Part shown: positions 41,641-51,321 of the stretch, one piece after another
Numbering within the stretch: position 1 is the first letter of the stretch
Layout of the letters: every line of letters begins with the position of its first letter
Assembly: GCF_053078305.1 (NCBI RefSeq)
Contig: NZ_CP166879.1
Direction: 5' to 3' (one strand)
DNA length: 64,000 bases
The notes under the pieces: model-generated
Database searches by the model: none
Told to the model about the DNA's origin: nothing
The model's input: the letters and a program-made list of their open reading frames with translations, nothing else
Program-made: the position numbers and the translations under genes

Positions 41641-44025
41641 TTAGAATGAAAGCCCTTCACCATCAGCCACAATCCTGTACCCCATCGCCTTATAACCCCG
41701 CTGGCGTTTATCCCACATTCTGAGCAGCACTGGATACGCGGTATCCACAAAATCAATGATCCTGACATCGCTTTTACCGGTATGCTCTCTGTGTAGACGT
41801 CCCGCATACTGCTGTAACGTCCCTTTCCATGACACAGGCATGGCAAGAATCAGCGTATCCAGCGGAGGGTGGTCAAATCCCTCACCAATAAGTCTGCCTG
41901 TTGACAACAAAATACGGGGAGAATCAGGAGGAAGAGCATTCAGCCCGGAAATCATCATAGTACGCTTTTTTTTCGATAATCGACTATGGAGAACAAAAGG
42001 CGACAATTTCAGTGTGTTCATCACTGAGGCTATATCATCCAGATGATCTGTACGTTCAGTCAGTACCAGAACTTTACGCCCCTGCCCAAAAGCTTTCATG
42101 GCTTCTTCAGCTATCGCCACCGTTCTGTCATGATCCAGAGCAATTTCTCTGAAAATATCCTGGATTCTCGCATCCGATGGTAAATGACCAGATGTAAAAC
42201 GGGAACGGGTCAGCACCTCCAGATTATGTGGGCTTTCCTTCGGGCGGGACGCTGTATGGCGAATGGCACCACAGTACATAAAAATAATGGGGTGCAGACC
42301 ATCCCGTCGGATTGGTGTTGCCGTCAGGCCAAGCAGATATCTGGCATTCGTTTCCTTCAGAATCGCAGAAAATGAAACCGCGCCAATATGATGGCACTCA
42401 TCCACAATGATTTGCCCATAATTCCTGACCAGAGGTTCAACTTCTCCGTGTCTGGATATGGACTGCACCACCGCAATATCAATATTGCCACAGGGTTTAT
42501 GTTTCCCTCCCCCGATAATACCAATACTGTCACCGGCCTGCAGAAACACCGCGAGACGCTCCTGCCACTGCTTCAGCAATTCAGTCCGGTGTACCAGTAT
42601 CAGTGTATTCACTTTCCGTCTGGCAATCACTGCCGCTGCGGTAACTGTCTTACCAAAAGCCGTTGGCGCACAAAGCACACCAGTGTCATAACGGAGTAAT
42701 GCCGAAACGGCCTCTTCCTGCTCCGCTCTGAGGTTTCCCATAAAAACGGCATTACATTCCGTCCCGGCAAATCGTTTATCGATTAATTCTGCAGCAATAT
42801 TGTTGTCCCTAAGGAAAGATAATACGCTGTCCAGACATCCCCGGGGCAACGCAATGTGTTGCGGGTAATTCTCCGCACAACCTATAACACGGGGCTTATT
42901 CCAGACTGACATACGCATTGCCTGAGCCTTATAAAACTCAGGGTTCGGAAATGCTGCCAGCCGAATAAGTCGGTTAATCAGCACCTGAGGTAATTGCGCT
43001 TTTTCGAAATAGATCTGATTTGCCAGCGTGATTTTCAGCGGTTCAGCAACAGCAAGATTCAGTCTGTTTCCTGATGATTTTTTCCCTTCCCATGGCGTAC
43101 CCAGGTCTTCTTCGTTGATAAAGTTCACATCCAGAGGATGGATACTTCCTGTAGCCCGTAATATCGTCGGTTCAATATCCTGCACATTCATCGGGAGCAC
43201 CGACGCAAGAAAAGCCCACTGATCAGGATGAGGCTGGAAATTCATATCAACAAAAACACTTCCCCCCGATGCACGCGGTCTTTTTTGCAGAGGTAACGCG
43301 ATAAGATTACCAAATCCTCCTTTTGGCATCGTATCCTGATTAGGAAATAATCGGTCATAAGAACTCAATTGCAGCTGTCGGGTCCGGCTGCACGTATAGC
43401 TAATAACAGCAGTCCCCAGACGGCGAGCTTCGCGGGCCGAAACTCGTGAAGCAAAAAATATCCAGACATGCGCTCCCTGACGTGAGCGGGATATTTCCAG
43501 CACAGCGGGTACACCCAGCTCATCACAGGCTCGCATGAACGCGGATGCATCCTTCTGCCATTCAGCTTCATCAAAATCAACAGCCAGAAAATAACAGGAA
43601 TCATCTTCCAGCAACGGATATAACCCGGCAGTATGCGTGCCTGCCAGATGCTGGTAGATGACAAGATCAGATACAGGAATCAACTGACGGTGAACGCAGT
43701 CCCCACATTTTATCCGGGGCTTACCGCATATTCCCAACTGCCATTCGTTAGCGCAGGCCGGCGAGTACCCTGATTTGCCGCTGGTTTTACTTTCCCATCT
43801 AAGTGCCCATACATCATCACGCCCACGAAACAACCGACGAAATAATGCAACCTTCTCGTCGGTGGATAATACAGAAACGCGCTGCACAGGAGTCTGCGGT
43901 TTACGTCTCCATTCAATCCCATGAGCTTCAAGTAATGAGACCAGACGGGCATTTTCTGCCCTCAATGCAGCTAATTCATCGCTGTCAGATTTATGAACCA
44001 TATTCGTTACCTGTATCCGATCCAC
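41641..44025 (-). CDS. Fusion protein: AEP primase-polymerase-like N-terminal domain plus SF2 helicase C-terminal domain (yfjK-position)
   Basis: 794 aa; N-terminal AVDFDE and SRSRQGAHVWIFF plus Cys cluster GICGKPRIKCGDCVH; helicase motifs CAPTAFGKT, VDECHH, TATP, QQYAGRLHR. Confidence 0.7.
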   Translation of the reverse strand: MDRIQVTNMVHKSDSDELAALRAENARLVSLLEAHGIEWRRKPQTPVQRVSVLSTDEKVALFRRLFRGRDDVWALRWESKTSGKSGYSPACANEWQLGICGKPRIKCGDCVHRQLIPVSDLVIYQHLAGTHTAGLYPLLEDDSCYFLAVDFDEAEWQKDASAFMRACDELGVPAVLEISRSRQGAHVWIFFASRVSAREARRLGTAVISYTCSRTRQLQLSSYDRLFPNQDTMPKGGFGNLIALPLQKRPRASGGSVFVDMNFQPHPDQWAFLASVLPMNVQDIEPTILRATGSIHPLDVNFINEEDLGTPWEGKKSSGNRLNLAVAEPLKITLANQIYFEKAQLPQVLINRLIRLAAFPNPEFYKAQAMRMSVWNKPRVIGCAENYPQHIALPRGCLDSVLSFLRDNNIAAELIDKRFAGTECNAVFMGNLRAEQEEAVSALLRYDTGVLCAPTAFGKTVTAAAVIARRKVNTLILVHRTELLKQWQERLAVFLQAGDSIGIIGGGKHKPCGNIDIAVVQSISRHGEVEPLVRNYGQIIVDECHHIGAVSFSAILKETNARYLLGLTATPIRRDGLHPIIFMYCGAIRHTASRPKESPHNLEVLTRSRFTSGHLPSDARIQDIFREIALDHDRTVAIAEEAMKAFGQGRKVLVLTERTDHLDDIASVMNTLKLSPFVLHSRLSKKKRTMMISGLNALPPDSPRILLSTGRLIGEGFDHPPLDTLILAMPVSWKGTLQQYAGRLHREHTGKSDVRIIDFVDTAYPVLLRMWDKRQRGYKAMGYRIVADGEGLSF

Positions 44026-44151: not shown

Positions 44152-44715
44152 TCAGTTGTGTCGTGGTCGGCCGCGGTTACTTTTTTCGGGAAGCCTGCTA
44201 CGGCCCAGAATAATACCGTGTTCTTTCTGATCTTGTTTAGCCAGGTAGCTGAGGGCGTAACGTAAGTCGTCTACCGCAGATTTATCACTATAGTGAATCA
44301 CGTGATCGATACGCACCGGGTATTTGTCTTTAGCCCGGCACAGATGAAAATAACCCTCCCCTTCCGTGATCCGCCTCCAGATATCCCCCAGTTGCCTGGA
44401 TGTCTGATAAGAGTTCTTGTGACGTTGTCCATCCAGATAGCCGATAAAATGAATATGAAGCCCTTTGTCTGGTGTATATTCCATTACCCAGTAATATCCC
44501 GCCAGCATCGTTTGGGTTTCACTAAGTAAACGGTATATTTCAATACACATACTGTGCTTACAGGAATGCCCGAAACTGGGCGTGTCTTTCCTGTAGGCAA
44601 AATCAATTCTGAAAGGTAACAGTTTAGAAAAACGTTGAAACAGACCTTCCATGTGTTCATTCACGTCTTTCAGAATCGTGAAATTCATTTCGTAATTGGG
44701 GTTAGCATTATACAT
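44152..44715 (-). CDS. YagK/YfjJ-family protein (inovirus Gp2-like)
   Basis: 187 aa; family recalled from CP4-6 yagK / CP4-57 yfjJ; lies between the yfjI-like and helicase genes as in CP4-57. Confidence 0.55.
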   Translation of the reverse strand: MYNANPNYEMNFTILKDVNEHMEGLFQRFSKLLPFRIDFAYRKDTPSFGHSCKHSMCIEIYRLLSETQTMLAGYYWVMEYTPDKGLHIHFIGYLDGQRHKNSYQTSRQLGDIWRRITEGEGYFHLCRAKDKYPVRIDHVIHYSDKSAVDDLRYALSYLAKQDQKEHGIILGRSRLPEKSNRGRPRHN

Positions 44716-45621
44716 TTTATAGTCCTTACTTTATAAAACTCACAGGAAGAGGAAATTACGTAAATGCTGAGGATACAGAAACGTCGTACCACGGCATTAA
44801 TAAACTGGGTAACCAGTATGCAGACAACCTGATAAAACTGTTTCGTATTACCTCATTACAGTAATGGGAGTAATACTTCAGAATACAGTGAGACTCTCTT
44901 AAACTGAGGACCAGTACGAATTACAATGGTAAAAACACACCTCATAGAATTAAGTTTAAGAAAGTACCATTCAATCACTTACAGGAAGTAATCTGATCTT
45001 CACAAAAGTCAGCTATCGAATAGCCACAGGCAACATCGCTATTAGTATTGCCGTACCATTAAGTAAAAACAGAGACTCTGCAGAGAGAGCCTACAGATAT
45101 TTAACCTCACAATAAGAAGATTATTTCATACAGAAAAGATTATATTTACCCATACTTATAAACTGTAACGGAGATATAACGTACGAACTAAAGACAATAT
45201 ACTCTAATAGTGTTCCGGTACGTAACTAGTGTTAAATACAAACCAGACATACATTTAGTGGATTAACTTTCTCAATATTACGCTATGAGTGTAGTAACAT
45301 AATTTACACATAACTAAACCCCATACACCACCACACTGTAGTATATGGGGATAGACGCATTACGCACATACAGAATACTCAGCATAAAGAGGAGTGACAT
45401 TACGATAAAAAGAGACAACATAACTCCCATTAATAATACTAATTAACCTAAATTATTTATTGAATACGAAAACAATGAGGGGGTCTCCTCATCCAAGACT
45501 AAAGCCAGCAATATCCTGAACAACACTCTATCCAATAGTAAACAATGGTTATACCAGTTATATTTGCTGACTGATCTGTACCAGAGTTCTGTAATACAAC
45601 AACGCTGACATGGTAAAAGCA

Positions 45622-45652
45622 TTAGTCTCCTCCGCAAGTAGCAGAGGAGACT
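45622..45652 (-). terminator. Candidate stem-loop terminator downstream of the yfjI-like gene
   Basis: Inverted repeat gtctcctc...gaggagac with 11-nt loop, just past the stop at 45678 on the minus strand. Confidence 0.35.
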
Positions 45653-45677
45653 ATATGTTACTCAACGATTAAGTCGT

Positions 45678-47132
45678 TCAGAGGTCAAAGTTAGGTGCGA
45701 CATACCACGTTTTGTCGTCAATAAACTGTACAACTCTGTTTTGCTCATACAGTAAATCCAGTAACCAGTTGAGTTTATCTTTTTTACGGAAACGGTTCGG
45801 ACCACGCTGTAAAATGTCATTTTTTCTCATACAGCGTATCCCCTTCTCAATGCAACAGCTTTTTATCCAGTTGAAAAGTTCAAGCTCCTCTGGAATGAGT
45901 CGCATAGGTACGGTCAGTGCAGAGTTTTCAAACGTTAACGGACTGGATAACCGAATATACTCATCGCCGTACCATATTGCTAATTCTCTCGCCATTTCAG
46001 CAGTGTAGGGGGAAATGTCACCTTCCTCACCGCTAAAATGGTGAATAAGCCCTGCCAGTCTTGCCATATACTCTGCATTTTTAGCAGCATATTCTCTGAA
46101 GTCTCTTAAAGGCCCCAGAACCGACATCTTCGATTCCACATTGTTGTAATAGTCCGTCCAGATTCTGGCTGCCTGAGGAGAAAAGTGAAGGCAACGCCGC
46201 TCTCCCCTCATAGCCAGGCTTTCATCAATGAGTTCATTTATCCTCTGTTCAAACAAATCCTGATACTGTGATGAATAATTATCTCCGGTTATTATTATCC
46301 TTGTCCCCTGCGTTGATGTTGGTTGACACATCAAAAACCTTGCATGATGTCCTGACGTTTTCACAAGTTCTTTTTTTCGTGTACAAAAACCTTTGTGGTA
46401 AACATCAGGCTGAACCATCACCGATATCGTCAGTCTTGGCTCCTTCAAAAAAATTCCGGGAGATGATTTCCTGTCGATGAAAAGAGAACCACCATCCCAC
46501 AAAGAGTTAAGTATTCCCAGTTTACTCATTGCCCGGCTGTCAAAAATTATCCCACCTTCACTGGATACAAGAGCAAAAGAGCGGTTGCTATCAGAATAAT
46601 ATTTTAACATTCCCTCTATCGTTGTATCATTAAAAATTGTTCGATGTATCTGTGGTGGAACAGGACACTTATTCAGATGTGTTTTAAGCTCTGATTCTGT
46701 TGTCTTATAATCTTTACCGGTACGAATCTCTTTATGAAGTTTTGACTCCAGTGCTTTTTGTTTTTGCGCCCATATTTCCTTTTCTGTACTGTAACTCTCA
46801 ACCAGTTTCGCGTATTCTTCCGCCAGGGCTTCATCCCTGAGATAAAATGCTTTCATAAACACTTTATCCACGGTCGTTTTCCTTTCACCAGAATCAGCCA
46901 GAATCATAGAGTAAATATTAGAGGACCCACGTAAATTTCCTGGTCTGCACACATCAACCTGATTCTGACAGGCAATTGACATCGCTGTTAATGCTGCAGT
47001 TATCGCCATAGCTATAGGTGTCTGTGTATTCTTTTGAGTTTCAATTATTGCATTTCTCGCCAGCGGTGGCATTGCATATATCGGACAAGGATTTTCTGGT
47101 GCAAGTAAGCACATAAATGCCTCTCTTTTCAT
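45678..47132 (-). CDS. DUF3987-type protein (YfjI-like)
   Basis: 484-aa ORF; follows alpA as yfjI does in CP4-57; family recalled. Confidence 0.6.
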   Translation of the reverse strand: MKREAFMCLLAPENPCPIYAMPPLARNAIIETQKNTQTPIAMAITAALTAMSIACQNQVDVCRPGNLRGSSNIYSMILADSGERKTTVDKVFMKAFYLRDEALAEEYAKLVESYSTEKEIWAQKQKALESKLHKEIRTGKDYKTTESELKTHLNKCPVPPQIHRTIFNDTTIEGMLKYYSDSNRSFALVSSEGGIIFDSRAMSKLGILNSLWDGGSLFIDRKSSPGIFLKEPRLTISVMVQPDVYHKGFCTRKKELVKTSGHHARFLMCQPTSTQGTRIIITGDNYSSQYQDLFEQRINELIDESLAMRGERRCLHFSPQAARIWTDYYNNVESKMSVLGPLRDFREYAAKNAEYMARLAGLIHHFSGEEGDISPYTAEMARELAIWYGDEYIRLSSPLTFENSALTVPMRLIPEELELFNWIKSCCIEKGIRCMRKNDILQRGPNRFRKKDKLNWLLDLLYEQNRVVQFIDDKTWYVAPNFDL

Positions 47133-47362: not shown

Positions 47363-47590
47363 TCAGGAATCAGCCAGAACCATAGTGTAAATATTAACGG
47401 GCCCACGTAAATTTCCGGGGTTGCACACGTCAATCTGATTCTGACAGGCAATTGACATCGCTGTTAATAATGATGTTGTAGTCATAGCCAGAGATGCTTT
47501 TTCATTGTGTTGAGTTTCAATTATTGCATTTCCAGTCATTGATGGTTGCGCATATACTGGATACGGAGTATCCGGTTTGATGTAAGACAT
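47363..47590 (-). pseudogene. Degenerate tandem duplicate of the 5' end of the yfjI-like gene
   Basis: 75-aa ORF aligns with residues ~7-80 of the 45678..47132 product; flanking DNA also duplicated (about 47330-47700 versus 46870-47230). Confidence 0.6.
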
Positions 47591-47695
47591 AAATATTTCC
47601 TTTTTTCGTAATAACTTTCGGTTATAGCAGCTATTTCCGCTACAATAGCAACAATAGCTGCTATACAGACTGGATATACTGAAAATACAGACAGT

Positions 47696-47944
47696 TCATC
47701 TGGTCTGTATCCAGCAGAGAAGGTCACTTAACAACCATCCGCAAGATTTCTTTCCGATAGACTTACGTGGTGGAAATGTTCCCTCCCGTTCAAGTTTCCA
47801 CGCTTGTGTACGAGAAATTGACGTGATCTCATATCGTTCCTTTTCACGTACCAGTCTGTCGCATTCAATCCCATAAGCTTTCAAAATGACCAGACGCTGT
47901 TCATCTGTTAATGGAAGCCACATACTACCCTCCTGATATATCAA
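47696..47944 (-). CDS. alpA: AlpA-family phage transcriptional regulator
   Basis: C-terminal ISRTQAWKLEREGTFPPRKSIGKKSCGWLLSDLLCWI matches the AlpA HTH pattern; true start may be an internal Met. Confidence 0.7.
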   Translation of the reverse strand: MIYQEGSMWLPLTDEQRLVILKAYGIECDRLVREKERYEITSISRTQAWKLEREGTFPPRKSIGKKSCGWLLSDLLCWIQTR

Positions 47945-48614
47945 TACTTTTTATTTCCGGCATGAGCATGAAATGACTAAGTTTCCCGGATAAACAATGA
48001 GTGAAAGTCACTATCATTCATCCAGTCAACACCTTGCAAATAAAATGTAATACCATGATTTTTATAGGTCAAAATACTGAATTACAATATTAAAATGGCT
48101 TTTAATAGAAAAAATAAAGACATATAGAGCCAAATAAAAACAAGCCGCGACCAATAAAAACAAAAAATTAATATTAAAAATCCATTATGACGATTTTTGT
48201 TGACTAAAATTAGGTTTGGATATATAAATAAATCCATGTAAAATTCAAACAAGGCATGGAGGAGTCGCAGGAAGGTGAAATATTTCCATCTAATTTGTGA
48301 TAATCATCACAAAAATAAGCTACAACAAGCGGAGGAAAAGACAATCTGTTGCTGAACAGACAGAAGCAGGCTACGAATGATCGGAAAATGAAGCAAATAC
48401 GCTTATACAGAAGACGCAGAGGTAACTGACGGAGACAATCACAATCAGGAGAAAATTATCGTAAATAATGTATAAAATCTCAGGATATAAACAAATGTAC
48501 ACAAGCTATCCACGTAATCAGCGGCTGGCTCAGGATTAACGTTTCATTTCAGTGGACAACATCGATTCTGTCTGACAGCGGACCAATATGTAGCAAGCAG
48601 AAACTTCTGACATC

Positions 48615-50252
48615 ATGGTAACTCGGACAATGCAACAAAAGTATCAGTATGATCGTGTTTTATCCGGCGAACTCCACCCATTCCCTGGCATATACGAGGC
48701 GGTTTCCGAACAAATCCTTTTGCTCATTTTTAAAGCACGTCAACTATATCAGGATCCAGAATATCGCCCCTGGTTTGAAGAACAGCACAGAGTACTCTCT
48801 GCATTACGTGCCAATACAGAGCTCCTGAGAATCTTTAGAGAACAAAGAAGCGCTGAAGAACCAAAGCTTACTATTGAAGAGTCTACCTCCCCCCAACCCA
48901 CTCCTTCTGCTCTTACAGATGCGCTTAATGTGATGTGCCATATATACAATGGTTTTGATGAAGGAAATATCAGTCTGAAAACCTGGGGGGCGATGCAAGA
49001 GGTACAGACAACATCAACCTTTATCAGCCCAGGACCGAGAACCTGGAAAACACCTGAACTGGCAAAGTTTGTAGGAGATGATTTATTTAATATTCTGACT
49101 GAATGTAAGGCCTGGAGTTCACCAATTCCAGCAGAAACCCGACAGGGGTATTGCCATCAGGATCTGTCTGTTGCACACTCCTGCACCTCAGAGTTACTGG
49201 CACACCTGAATCAATATCATGAAATTGATGAATCAGCAATACTTGCCAGAGTTATTGGTATAACAGTTAACGGATTCTACAAGAAAAATAATACAGACCT
49301 TCCAGAATGGCTATCCCCCTTTAAAGAGGAACATAAAATATTCAGAGATTGTCCGGAGCAAAATACCGGGGATGTAATCAGACGGAAAGAACAACTGTTG
49401 AAAACAGGACGTACAGAATTCGTGAATAATTTGTGTCGGGTCGCCAACTGGTATGAAATTGAGTCAATATACGATGAATACGTCCGTCTTTATGCCAATG
49501 AAATCATTGACTGGTTCAACAAAACCATGAAGTATTTTAAACCAACAGATTTTATCCGATATACATGGAAATTCGCAACAGTTACTCCGGATAAAGATAC
49601 AGAAACCGGGCATACAACTGCATGGGAAAAGGATTATTGCCAGATAACCATACAACGTGATGAACTTCTGAGGTTGATTCACACCAATACCCTTCAGGAT
49701 GCAGTAATTTATCTTTGTCATTGTCTGCAGAAGGAATACAAGAAATCATCCCAAAATGAGATAGAGTTCCCAGGAATAAAACCTCCGACATCAGAGAGTA
49801 AAATTAATATAACAAATAATATTAAATTTCATTCTCTCCTGGAGCTCAGTAAAGATAATGAGAAGCGTCTGGAAACATTTCAAAAATGGTATGAAAAAAA
49901 TAAAGTTTTGTTAGAAAGTCATAAACAAAAACGAACAGAGAAGATTGACGTTGCCGTACGACTTGTAGGGCTGAAAGCCTATGATCTGCATGAAGGGATT
50001 CCGGATAGTCCAAAACGAAAAGTTAAAGATGGCATAAATGAAGACATCAAAGCCGATACCAGTTTACGCCTGTCAAAGACAAATATAAGTGATACGTCGC
50101 TAAACCGTTATCGCCGCACTGTTAAGGAGATTATCAATAACGAAATTGACGCATTCCTGTTGGAACAGAAGAAAAAAAATAAAAGATTTCCCTACAGTGA
50201 AGATAGAGATGTGATTCGACCTTTATGGGGAAAATGCCTGACCGGGCAGTAG
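48615..50252 (+). CDS. Uncharacterised low-GC protein
   Basis: 545-aa ORF, A+T-rich, preceded by about 670 nt of AT-rich non-coding DNA; no recognised motifs. Confidence 0.5.
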   Translation: MVTRTMQQKYQYDRVLSGELHPFPGIYEAVSEQILLLIFKARQLYQDPEYRPWFEEQHRVLSALRANTELLRIFREQRSAEEPKLTIEESTSPQPTPSALTDALNVMCHIYNGFDEGNISLKTWGAMQEVQTTSTFISPGPRTWKTPELAKFVGDDLFNILTECKAWSSPIPAETRQGYCHQDLSVAHSCTSELLAHLNQYHEIDESAILARVIGITVNGFYKKNNTDLPEWLSPFKEEHKIFRDCPEQNTGDVIRRKEQLLKTGRTEFVNNLCRVANWYEIESIYDEYVRLYANEIIDWFNKTMKYFKPTDFIRYTWKFATVTPDKDTETGHTTAWEKDYCQITIQRDELLRLIHTNTLQDAVIYLCHCLQKEYKKSSQNEIEFPGIKPPTSESKINITNNIKFHSLLELSKDNEKRLETFQKWYEKNKVLLESHKQKRTEKIDVAVRLVGLKAYDLHEGIPDSPKRKVKDGINEDIKADTSLRLSKTNISDTSLNRYRRTVKEIINNEIDAFLLEQKKKNKRFPYSEDRDVIRPLWGKCLTGQ

Positions 50253-50338
50253 ATCACAGATGGGATAACATCCCGGTTATCCCCTGTTTGTTCTGCTTCA
50301 GGTTGCCAGAGCTCCAGGAACACGAGGCAATCGGCAAA

Positions 50339-50935
50339 TTATGCGGCTTTTCCATTAACAGATTCGACCACAAGAACAACACCGTGTTTGTTTCGATCAG
50401 GATGTTCACTCCAGATTTCTGATTCAGGAATACTTTCCCCATCATAGCAGATCCGATCACCATCAAACGGATAATACCGTGCGGAATCTGTATCTAAGAT
50501 AAACACCTTAAGATTCGTTGAACGACGCGCTATATGCTGCCAGAGGGCTTTACCTCCTTCATATTGCTCGTTATCACTTAATAGTATAACGCCTGCTTTT
50601 GTGGCTATTGTTTCATAAACAAACGTAGCAAGGCTAACATCACGTACAGCGCCATCGACAACAATCCCTTCAATCTGAGCAACGTCCTGTTCTTCCCAGA
50701 ATTTCCGGACAACCCCCCCTTCAAGCTGTGAACGACGCTGAAGCTCCAGAGTGGCAACAACCTTATAGCGAATATCACCATCAATAACAGAAGGTGCAGC
50801 TTCGATTACCGCAGCGAACGGAGTCTTTGGATCCCAGATGATCTGGTAAAGCACACCCTGAATAGTTACTCCATCCAGTATCGAAAAACGACGAGCTACA
50901 GTAGCAGGGGAGTAAGACATTGGAATGACAGCCAT
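50339..50935 (-). CDS. Uncharacterised protein adjacent to thrW
   Basis: 198-aa ORF convergent with the 545-aa gene; no recognised motifs. Confidence 0.45.
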   Translation of the reverse strand: MAVIPMSYSPATVARRFSILDGVTIQGVLYQIIWDPKTPFAAVIEAAPSVIDGDIRYKVVATLELQRRSQLEGGVVRKFWEEQDVAQIEGIVVDGAVRDVSLATFVYETIATKAGVILLSDNEQYEGGKALWQHIARRSTNLKVFILDTDSARYYPFDGDRICYDGESIPESEIWSEHPDRNKHGVVLVVESVNGKAA

Positions 50936-51235
50936 TTTATGGCCTAAAATTTGAAAACATCAGTATCAATACTGACCTCATCAGTCTGAGCATATATTGA
51001 TAAAGTTTTTATGTTTACACTCAATAAATACCTTGCTAAACAACTAATAGCGATGTCTACATTGCCATTCGACATGCTTACAATTTTTGTCAACAAGAAA
51101 GTGAATTTATATCAACGGTAAGAAGTAAACACGAGGACACCAAAACCAAATGTATACACTTTTGTGCTTTGTGTCCCCTGTGTGTACCCAAATGACAAAC
51201 TGCAAGAAAATCTAGGCACACACTTATCTAACTTA

Positions 51236-51291
51236 TTGATTTAAATGGTGCCGATAATAGGAGTCGAACCTACGACCTTCGCATTACGAAT
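51236..51291 (-). repeat. thrW-proximal att repeat (3' 46 nt of tRNA-Thr plus ttgatttaaa)
   Basis: Identical to 5333..5388. Confidence 0.85.
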
Positions 51292-51321
51292 GCGCTGCTC
51301 TACCAACTGAGCTATATCGGC
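51246..51321 (-). tRNA. thrW: tRNA-Thr (anticodon CGU)
   Basis: Reverse complement GCCGATATAGCTCAGTTGGTAGAGCAGCGCATTCGTAATGCGAAGGTCGTAGGTTCGACTCCTATTATCGGCACCA; 76 nt with CCA end; immediately downstream of proA. Confidence 0.95.

Follow-up and report, generated by a model that had tools for sequence, protein, structure and literature searches.

A conserved 32-nucleotide element upstream of yagK-like genes in a non-coding interval of an Escherichia coli genomic island

Gene content and composition of the yfjI-yagK interval

A 962-nt interval (positions 44716-45677) was analyzed in a 64,000-nt stretch of the Escherichia coli STEC17-190 chromosome, hereafter called the window; the interval corresponds to NZ_CP075649.1 3980745-3981706. 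It lies in a genomic island and is bounded by the stop codon of a yfjI-like gene (45678) and the start codon of a yagK-like gene (44715, minus strand). The island module is arranged in the order integrase, two hypothetical genes, AlpA-type regulator, (DUF3987 fragment), YfjI, the interval, YagK-like gene, and variable cargo, and its chromosomal site differs between strains. Comparison of the interval with its relatives singled out an element of approximately 32 nt, termed block 1, which is conserved upstream of yagK-like genes far beyond E. coli.

The GC content within the interval is 0.33-0.39, compared with 0.44-0.50 in the flanking genes. The plus strand is A-rich, with an AT skew of approximately +0.2, and the minus strand is U-rich. 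The initial annotation had described approximately 960 nt of AT-rich DNA without an open reading frame (ORF) of 60 amino acids (aa) or more, and this description holds for ATG starts, with which no ORF of at least 60 aa was found; under translation table 11, a single 64-aa ORF with a TTG start is present (45443-45637, minus strand). The absence of ORFs is uninformative by itself, because shuffled sequence of the same composition gives ORFs of similar length (longest ORF of 64 aa in the interval vs. 57.6 ± 16 aa expected from dinucleotide shuffles). The individual candidates were also rejected as genes. The 64-aa ORF showed no Pfam match, and indels of 1, 2, and 4 nt break its frame in relatives. 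A 38-aa hydrophobic ORF (45314-45430), which starts inside block 1 and was considered as a type I toxin, is frameshifted by a 13-nt repeat in most relatives and is also absent from loci L008 and L011. In many variants, the GTG codon is missing from a 35-aa ORF that overlaps the start of yagK.

The interval was matched in 1,584 of 5,426 complete E. coli genomes (approximately 29%) at 80-95% identity, and the majority of these matches had no annotated feature underneath. Homologs of the spacer under a coding sequence or pseudogene were not found among the E. coli matches listed, except for a 98-nt fragment beside IS3, and no similarity of the interval to phage records was detected. With the small ORFs unconserved as well, the earlier suggestion of a degraded gene was not borne out. 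The interval is genuine non-coding DNA, and the property in which it goes beyond chance expectation is its conservation. Its length is not a constant of the module: in the CP4-57 element of E. coli K-12, the gene order is identical, yet only approximately 150 nt separate yfjI and yfjJ. The 98-nt fragment (window 44990-45087; L007 5001-5096; 91% identical) occurs alone in a lambdoid prophage of strain PEC41, where a fragment of IS3 and a truncated terminase gene of the P27 family flank it, and it was probably moved there by a rearrangement mediated by the insertion sequence (IS). YagK/YfjJ and the interval belong to the unannotated “y-ome” territory. No published description of either was found in the searchable literature, and block 1 is, as far as this literature goes, an undescribed element.

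Block 1 is conserved and linked to yagK-like genes

When the interval was compared with ever more distant regions upstream of yagK-like genes, nearly all of it became unalignable except block 1, the consensus of which is AATTWAGGTTAATTARTATTATTA..GRAGT (approximately 32 nt). Block 1 was found upstream of, and co-oriented with, a yagK-like gene in 14 of 14 lineages, with 34-100% identity at the protein level. These lineages comprise Escherichia (two island types), Citrobacter freundii, C. braakii, Erwinia, Rouxiella, Limnobaculum, Yersinia enterocolitica, Y. intermedia, and several metagenomic lineages. A scan of metagenome contigs with a degenerate block 1 pattern returned 90 loci, eight of which were AT-rich chance matches. 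In 67 of the 82 true loci, a yagK-like gene followed on the same strand; the contig ended before the gene in 12, and three were disrupted by IS elements or rearrangements. Scans of genome contigs with the block 1 pattern and with the YfjI protein gave no matches. Block 1 accompanies yagK also when the upstream neighbor is not yfjI, and its distance to the yagK start ranges from 78 to approximately 960 nt across lineages. These results demonstrate that block 1 is linked to the yagK-like gene. The element occurs once in the 64-kb window, where chance predicts 0 copies, and nhmmer found one copy per locus.

In most lineages, block 1 contains a near-palindromic spacer (AATTAA-GG-TTAATT), followed by a candidate -10 hexamer (TAGTAT or TATTAT) and a putative transcription start near GGGAG. 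The palindrome is perfect in six lineages, symmetric in L108 through changes in both arms, and imperfect in the window lineage and five others; its stems consist of AT pairs only and are 4-6 bp long. The yagK and yfjJ genes of K-12, whose proteins are only approximately 17% identical to the window protein, have a related upstream motif, T(T/G)GATAGGTAWTATATA. This motif (L002 5470-5500 for yfjJ and L003 ~7150-7180 for yagK) resembles the 3' half of block 1. In a Citrobacter locus (L011 5745-5857), the 3' half of block 1 (TATTATYAGTRGAAGTAT, 22-mers) is repeated three times at a spacing of 45-46 nt, and these repeats could be iterons or tandem promoters.

A promoter for a phage single-subunit RNA polymerase was considered for block 1 and rejected. 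Its ends resemble SP6, T3, and T7 promoters (ATTTAGGT...TATAGAAG / GGGAG), but block 1 exceeds the length of such promoters by 8-10 nt, none of the IMG/VR contigs had more than one copy, and the reading was left without support.

The YagK-like protein resembles Rep nucleases

Residues R36, D38, E79, H87, H89, Y157, and K160, which form the HUH and YxxK motifs, were invariant in an alignment of 23 YagK-like proteins. The AlphaFold2 (AF2) model (pLDDT 91) has a fold matching those of Inovirus Gp2, the parvovirus NS1 nuclease, and the microvirus and CRESS Rep proteins, and Pfam analysis gave weak matches to REP_ORF2-G2P and YagK_YfjJ_C. Judged from its sequence and modeled fold, the yagK-like gene encodes a small HUH Rep-like protein with predicted catalytic residues retained, and its catalysis appears to be under selection. 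The gene adjacent to block 1 is therefore of the HUH endonuclease type, with a predicted metal site, a catalytic tyrosine, and a Rep fold. The C-terminal RGRPR is near-invariant (21 of 23 aligned proteins) and is absent from YagK and YfjJ of K-12. It fits the AT-hook DNA-binding motif (R-G-R-P core with basic flanks), by which DNA binding is predicted.

No small plasmid or single-stranded DNA (ssDNA) phage with a close YagK relative was found by tblastn; the matches were islands, large plasmids, and Acinetobacter phage records of approximately 82 kb. In many genera, the yagK-like gene is directly followed by alpA in the same orientation. Outside E. coli (L009, L107, L108, L110, L111, L112, and L114), it usually leads a yagK-alpA pair that is divergent from a CP4-57-like block of DUF932, YfjP-like GTPase, RadC, and CbeA genes. 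In such loci, block 1 would control the AlpA regulator of the island.

Anatomy of the interval within E. coli

The anatomy of the interval in E. coli was derived from an alignment of 30 distinct full-length versions, and its features are collected in Table 1. The part next to yfjI is the most uniform. Over the approximately 225 nt proximal to yfjI and over block 1, conservation equals that of the coding flanks (diversity 0.02-0.06, hardly any indels), and the distance from the yfjI stop codon to block 1 is nearly fixed at 217-226 nt wherever yfjI is the neighbor. The stem-loop that the initial annotation had placed at 45622..45652 is real. It consists of 13 bp at 45623-45653 (arms 45623-45635 and 45641-45653; seven GC pairs), is followed by the tail ATGCTTTTAC, and lies 25 nt past the yfjI-like stop codon; its stability and z-score are given in Table 1. 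This hairpin was nearly invariant among 19-30 relatives, the sole change being from U-G to C-G in one of 19. It has the features of an intrinsic terminator, with a U-tract that is short and offset and an efficiency that is uncertain. A weak second hairpin (45474-45493; z -1.1), followed by a T-run, is located in the same flank, and its pairing survives A-U to G-U and G-C to G-U changes.

Homology drops abruptly 3' of block 1, where the alignment enters the segment 45425-45239 with 40% gap columns. Right after block 1, the unit GTTATGTT(G/A)TCT is duplicated in tandem in most relatives, and some have a third copy approximately 150 nt downstream; tandem copies of this 12-nt unit are also present in L005. 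The window copy has lost one repeat unit, a 13-nt deletion when compared with the majority of relatives. The whole hypervariable segment is missing from the common 601-nt variants, in which everything between the first and third copies of the 12-nt unit is deleted. A 13-bp hairpin within this segment (45319-45350; dG -22.2 kcal/mol; z -3.9) includes a compensatory change from C-G to U-A.

Over the last approximately 520 nt toward yagK, diversity is about double that of the flanking genes. This remainder of the leader is partly common to the second E. coli island type and absent in other genera; L008 keeps just the yagK-proximal approximately 390 nt plus block 1. Weak terminator-like hairpins occur in it at 45077-45097 and 44804-44817. 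Over the whole interval, seven terminator-like hairpins were counted on the minus strand, compared with 0.7 expected, the strong ones being 45653-45623 and 45350-45319, and several of the seven retain their pairing through compensatory or wobble-preserving substitutions. In the O157:H7 strain SS17 (L004 6713-7925), a frameshifted IS3 is inserted between block 1 and yagK and places the candidate promoter approximately 1.9 kb from the gene.

Table 1. Features of the interval and its flanking genes (window coordinates)
Feature	Position	Strand	Evidence
yfjI-like gene (DUF3987), upstream neighbor; its stop codon bounds the interval	45678..47132	minus	Pfam DUF3987, E value 7e-84; RefSeq “YfjI family protein” in the identical record
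13-bp hairpin followed by AUGCUUUUAC; likely intrinsic terminator or 3'-end stabilizer of the yfjI-like transcript	45623..45653	minus	dG -25.6 kcal/mol, z -7.0
yfjI-linked 3' flank	45455..45677	minus	Diversity 0.02-0.06, near-zero indels, length nearly fixed
Candidate -35 TTCAAT, 17 nt upstream of TAGTAT (45436-45441)	45459..45464	minus	Weak, 7/12 consensus matches
Block 1, AATTTAGGTTAATTAGTATTATTAATGGGAGT; family-wide conserved cis-element, candidate core promoter	45423..45454	minus	14-lineage comparison
12-nt unit GTTATGTTGTCT, single copy overlapping the end of block 1	45413..45424	minus	Alignment of relatives
Hypervariable, indel-rich segment directly 3' of block 1	45239..45425	minus	40% gap columns, diversity 0.08-0.115
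Remaining long leader/spacer	44764..45238	minus	Diversity 0.07-0.115 within E. coli
Block 2, TTACGTAATTTCCTCTTCCTGTGAG; A-rich/TTACR box and pyrimidine-rich anti-Shine-Dalgarno-like element	44739..44763	minus	Position conserved across lineages
AAGGA, Shine-Dalgarno sequence of the yagK-like gene; 7 nt before its ATG (44715)	44723..44727	minus	Sequence reading
yagK-like gene, 187-aa HUH-type Rep-like protein with C-terminal RGRPR AT-hook	44152..44715	minus	Invariant residues, predicted fold

A second conserved position precedes the yagK start codon

Outside block 1, conservation of position rather than of sequence was observed close to the gene. Block 2 consists of an A-rich/TTACR box followed by a pyrimidine-rich box and is located 25-50 nt upstream of the start codon, a position conserved across lineages. 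Seven other lineages have a local hairpin in which the pyrimidine box is paired with the Shine-Dalgarno (SD) sequence, built from a different sequence in each, such as UCUUCCUC/GAGGAAGA, CGUUCCUC/GAGGAACG, UGUUCCU/AGGAACA, and CCAUGAA/UUCAUGG. In the window lineage, the SD pairing is reduced to approximately 4 bp and is no better than in shuffled sequence (z +0.8).

In L110, eight nucleotides of the SD region (CAGGAACA) recur exactly just downstream of block 1 (3875-3882 and 3990-3997). This copy could compete for the anti-SD box and form a three-element switch. As a general feature the switch was rejected, since it is present in L110 and L059 and absent in L107 and L108. Long-range pairing of the 3' end of block 1 with the anti-SD box or with 44862-44874 was rejected as well; duplexes of -10 to -17 kcal/mol can be formed, with partners that lack covariation and a register that depends on the lineage.

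A proposed promoter and leader for the yagK-like gene

The interval is best read as a composite of the terminator region of the yfjI-like gene, a promoter-operator of yagK, and a lineage-specific leader of approximately 700 nt ending in the SD region. It is somewhat probable that the interval, which follows the 3' end of the yfjI-like gene, controls both transcription and translation of the yagK-like gene. The yfjI-like transcript would terminate at the strong hairpin 45653-45623, and approximately 220 nt further on, transcription of yagK would start from a promoter in block 1 (45454-45423), of which the putative -10 hexamer, the inter-hexamer spacer, and the first transcribed GRAGT are conserved family-wide. 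A promoter needs far fewer than 32 near-invariant bases, and we therefore infer a sequence-specific regulator that would bind the near-palindromic spacer as its operator. The obvious candidate is the YagK-like protein with its predicted AT-hook, which would then regulate its own gene; AlpA and a factor from the host or a helper are alternatives. Transcription from block 1 would produce an untranslated leader of approximately 700 nt, lineage-specific, indel-prone, and containing many hairpins. At the end of this leader, the pyrimidine box would act with the SD sequence, and the SD-sequestering hairpin of most other lineages would limit translation.

The promoter assignment is suggested by the position of sigma-70-like sites in relatives. 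In the two Yersinia loci, L107 and L110, the interval must hold a promoter because the upstream gene is divergent, and the sole yagK-facing sigma-70-like site in each uses TATTAT of block 1 as its -10 hexamer with nine of 12 matches (TTGATG-16-TATTAT and CTGACT-16-TATTAT). The same register was repeated in a separate promoter scan of L014, where it was the top-scoring site, and of L114, where it was among the top-scoring sites. TTCAA(T/A)-17-TAGTAT is retained in both E. coli lineages (TTCAAA in the second), and the motif of K-12 yagK makes a near-consensus promoter, TTTAGA-16-TATAAT. The shortest version is that of Rouxiella (L111). Its ATG follows the start of the block-1-like motif by 78 nt, and only the A-box and the SD hairpin intervene, an arrangement that looks like an ordinary promoter and 5' untranslated region (UTR).

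Several observations weigh against this reading. A consensus scan of the window copy found no sigma-70-like promoter reaching nine of 12 matches, compared with five expected; the candidate -35 hexamer (TTCAAT) is poor, and TTCAAT-17-TAGTAT scores only 7/12. The near-invariance of 32 nt across proteins of approximately 35% identity far exceeds what a promoter requires. A hairpin of -22 kcal/mol with a U-rich tail in a 700-nt leader is expected to halt much of the transcription before yagK is reached, and the SD hairpin is weak in the window lineage. In addition, the z-scores of alignment folding were modest, and the minus strand was not clearly better than the plus strand once composition was controlled. 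Block 1 may also be a nick or binding site of the YagK-like protein. Most probably, it belongs to a known kind, a regulated promoter-operator with a leader, which possibly doubles as an HUH target site.

Alternative explanations for the interval

An alternative that we regard as doubtful, compatible with a promoter function, sees in block 1 chiefly the DNA on which the YagK-like HUH protein acts, that is, a nick site, double-strand origin (dso), or origin of transfer (oriT) for rolling-circle replication (RCR) or mobilization of the excised island; the lineage-specific repeats would then be the binding locus and the rest of the interval a spacer. The invariant HUH (H87 and H89) and YxxK (Y157 and K160) residues of the protein, its fold, which matches Rep nucleases, and the co-occurrence of the AT-hook with an AT-rich block 1 are consistent with such a role. 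Throughout the protein family, the cis-site is kept and stays with the gene (14 lineages), it is retained at any distance from the gene between 78 and approximately 960 nt, and in L108 the symmetry of the near-palindrome is kept through two-sided change. Its sharp 3' edge is immediately followed by a hypervariable, deletion-prone segment, and the direct repeats that begin at or inside it depend on the lineage (three 22-mers spaced 45-46 nt apart in Citrobacter and 12-mers in E. coli). Geminivirus and RCR-plasmid origins can combine origin and promoter function. On the other side of the balance, tblastn identified no autonomous RCR replicon or ssDNA phage in the YagK family, block 1 occurs once per locus and once per 64-kb window, the window copy contains no repeated words above chance, and a stable hairpin that could present a nick is not clearly conserved. 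The resemblance of TAGTATTAT to the CRESS nonamer (TAGTATTAC) was rejected as non-specific, as seven sites with one mismatch occur in the interval, and a two-ended rolling-circle transposon, which would carry a second copy of block 1, was rejected on the nhmmer result of a single copy per locus. The notion of an origin-like region raised by the initial annotation stands in part. A conserved cis-element does accompany a gene of the Rep-like (HUH) type, but the interval lacks the features of a classical origin, the element follows yagK rather than DUF3987, and a promoter-operator with a long leader accounts for more of the observations. In the window interval, no iterons, tandem repeats, or direct-repeat families were found, no 5- to 8-mers were enriched over shuffled sequence, and DnaA boxes, unwinding-element 13-mers, and the integration host factor (IHF) consensus each had 0 matches, as did the P4 type I iterons TGTTCACC at up to one mismatch. 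These absences count against an origin of the type found in phage-inducible chromosomal islands (PICIs), Staphylococcus aureus pathogenicity islands (SaPIs), or P4 and served by the yfjI-like (DUF3987) protein, which is highly improbable and not supported. The interval does lie immediately 3' of the DUF3987 gene in an int-alpA-DUF3987 module, with a putative initiator role for YfjI; its first approximately 225 nt are conserved like coding DNA at a fixed distance between yfjI and block 1, and there is published precedent for the position, as the origin lies directly downstream of the initiator gene (pri-rep/repA) in Gram-negative PICIs and PIMEs (PMC6092414; bioRxiv 10.64898/2026.01.12.698999). 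However, block 1, the only deeply conserved element, follows yagK, DUF3987 is 4 kb away on the other strand in other island types, and the yfjI-yfjJ interval of CP4-57 in K-12 is only approximately 150 nt long.

Two further explanations, each improbable, dispense with an origin. One or more independent small RNAs (sRNAs) might be encoded, either an RNA of approximately 110 nt from block 1 to the hairpin 45350-45319 or one derived from the 3' UTR of yfjI. The excess of terminator-like hairpins on the minus strand (seven vs. 0.7 expected), two of them strong, the compensatory and wobble-preserving substitutions, and the U-richness of this strand would fit such a product. However, the Rfam 15 covariance search at E ≤ 1 returned only two chance matches, both to eukaryotic models at E values of 0.2-0.3, far below the gathering score. 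The 601-nt variants lack the segment from block 1 to the hairpin; other variants have it rearranged, and in some its U-tract is gone. Downstream of block 1, only the SD-proximal box is conserved outside E. coli. The alignment-fold z-scores, modest and not strand-specific, also argue against such a product. For the small RNA suggested in the initial annotation, no known family was matched, and the terminator-like hairpins inside the interval are confined to particular lineages or lost in relatives. Identity with Esr41, an sRNA of O-island 43, was rejected, since Esr41 lies between z1181 and z1182, far from the module. The other explanation, to which we give equally little credence, regards the DNA beyond a terminator and a short promoter as functionless AT-rich filler, the remnant of an old insertion or decayed gene, probably silenced by H-NS. 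It would account for a spacer between block 1 and the start codon that varies from 78 to approximately 960 nt among lineages, is rich in indels, has about twice the diversity of the flanking genes, tolerates an IS3 insertion (O157 SS17) and 150-nt deletions, and has an ORF content at chance level. A hint in the same direction is that a DUF3296-family gene was among the genes evaluated in a study of Aar in enteroaggregative E. coli (EAEC) 042, Aar being an AraC negative regulator reported to modulate histone-like proteins (PMC5570504). Against the filler stand the lack of homology to annotated genes or pseudogenes among the E. coli matches listed and to phages, and the hairpins that keep their pairing through compensatory changes; moreover, it leaves blocks 1 and 2 unexplained.

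Island context and significance

The cargo that follows the yagK-like gene is variable, being a TOTE primase-helicase in the window, Zorya in L006, a group II intron in L005, and McrBC in other sister islands. The first cargo gene of the window (41641-44025, minus strand) encodes a 794-aa fusion of a TOTE-type archaeo-eukaryotic primase (PF22548) and a DEAD/ResIII helicase; its position is occupied by Zorya type I, McrBC, or the group II intron in the sister islands. On the other side of the interval, a 75-aa ORF (47363-47590, minus strand), which RefSeq annotates as a DUF3987 pseudogene, shares 61% identity with residues 7-81 at the N-terminus of the YfjI-like protein. L005 and L006 carry this remnant of a truncated second yfjI allele as well, suggesting that recombination within the module replaced an allele long ago. 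A near-perfect hairpin of approximately 18 bp (47624-47664; AUAGCAGCUAUUGUUGCUA...UAGCGGAAAUAGCUGCUAU), with a spurious microRNA match in Rfam, overlaps the 3' end of the alpA-like ORF (47696-47944), just upstream of the DUF3987 remnant. The window island abuts tRNA-Thr (CGU, thrW; 51246-51321), with the island edge at approximately 47950-51240. In L004, L005, and L006, a tyrosine integrase gene stands beside the two hypothetical genes that these islands have in common with the window island. Because there is no integrase gene beside tRNA-Thr in the window, this copy of the island may be unable to excise.

The int-alpA-yfjI-yagK module is present in approximately 29% of complete E. coli genomes, directly before variable anti-phage cargo. 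Block 1, with 32 nt better conserved than the surrounding proteins, provides a handle for experiments and a signature for finding the family. It makes it possible to ask how these islands are switched on, whether the Rep-like protein acts as a regulator or a nickase, and whether the islands replicate or move. Should block 1 be no more than a normal regulated promoter followed by a long leader, this would be useful annotation but no surprise. Less likely, the YagK/YfjJ-type proteins are a previously unrecognized family of small HUH nickases with block 1 as the cognate nick site (dso or oriT). In that case, the very common int-alpA-(DUF3987)-yagK islands of Enterobacterales, known as “cryptic prophages” and defense islands (CP4-57/CP4-6-like and SpLE1-like), would be replicative or mobilizable elements, in which AlpA-triggered excision would be followed by rolling-circle copying, or by transfer to a conjugative or phage helper, from block 1. 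The indel hotspot 3' of block 1 would then be a by-product of nicking.

Comparison with known systems

The origins of PICIs, SaPIs, and PIMEs share with the module int, alpA, and a DUF3987-type gene with an AT-rich non-coding stretch directly downstream of it. Their two iteron sets around an AT-rich core are absent here, and the conserved element segregates with yagK. Identity with a PIME was rejected, as PIMEs carry trbJ/trbL, unlike the window module, and constitute a different family. The immunity leader of satellite phage P4 is a long untranslated leader with several terminators. The interval resembles it in the long untranslated region, the P4/PICI-like module (AlpA/Vis-like regulator and alpha-like DUF3987), and the several terminator-like hairpins. 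It differs in that similarity to phages is lacking, the leader precedes a Rep-like gene instead of an alpha operon, and conserved RNA-RNA pairing is not demonstrable.

Leaders in which a hairpin sequesters the SD sequence and thereby limits the translation of replication or regulatory genes are matched by the pyrimidine box 20-35 nt upstream, which pairs with the SD sequence and shows covariation at the family level (seven lineages). In the window lineage, by contrast, this pairing is not above that of shuffled sequences, and the analysis of the interval found no antisense RNA or conserved leader peptide, unlike in those systems.

The origin-promoters of HUH Rep systems, such as the geminivirus common region and the dso of pMV158, form the last comparison. 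In the RCR plasmid pMV158, the dso combines a conserved “nic” region with replicon-specific “bind” repeats. The locus described here differs from these systems in having no clearly conserved stem-loop for presenting a nick, no autonomous small replicon, and one repeat unit in the window; its protein has just 187 aa, carries an AT-hook and no helicase domain, and its nicking is putative. It resembles them in a short element that is conserved family-wide upstream of a Rep gene, in the overlap of this element with a candidate promoter, in the direct repeats that follow the element and differ between lineages, and in a protein with HUH and YxxK motifs and a predicted Rep fold.

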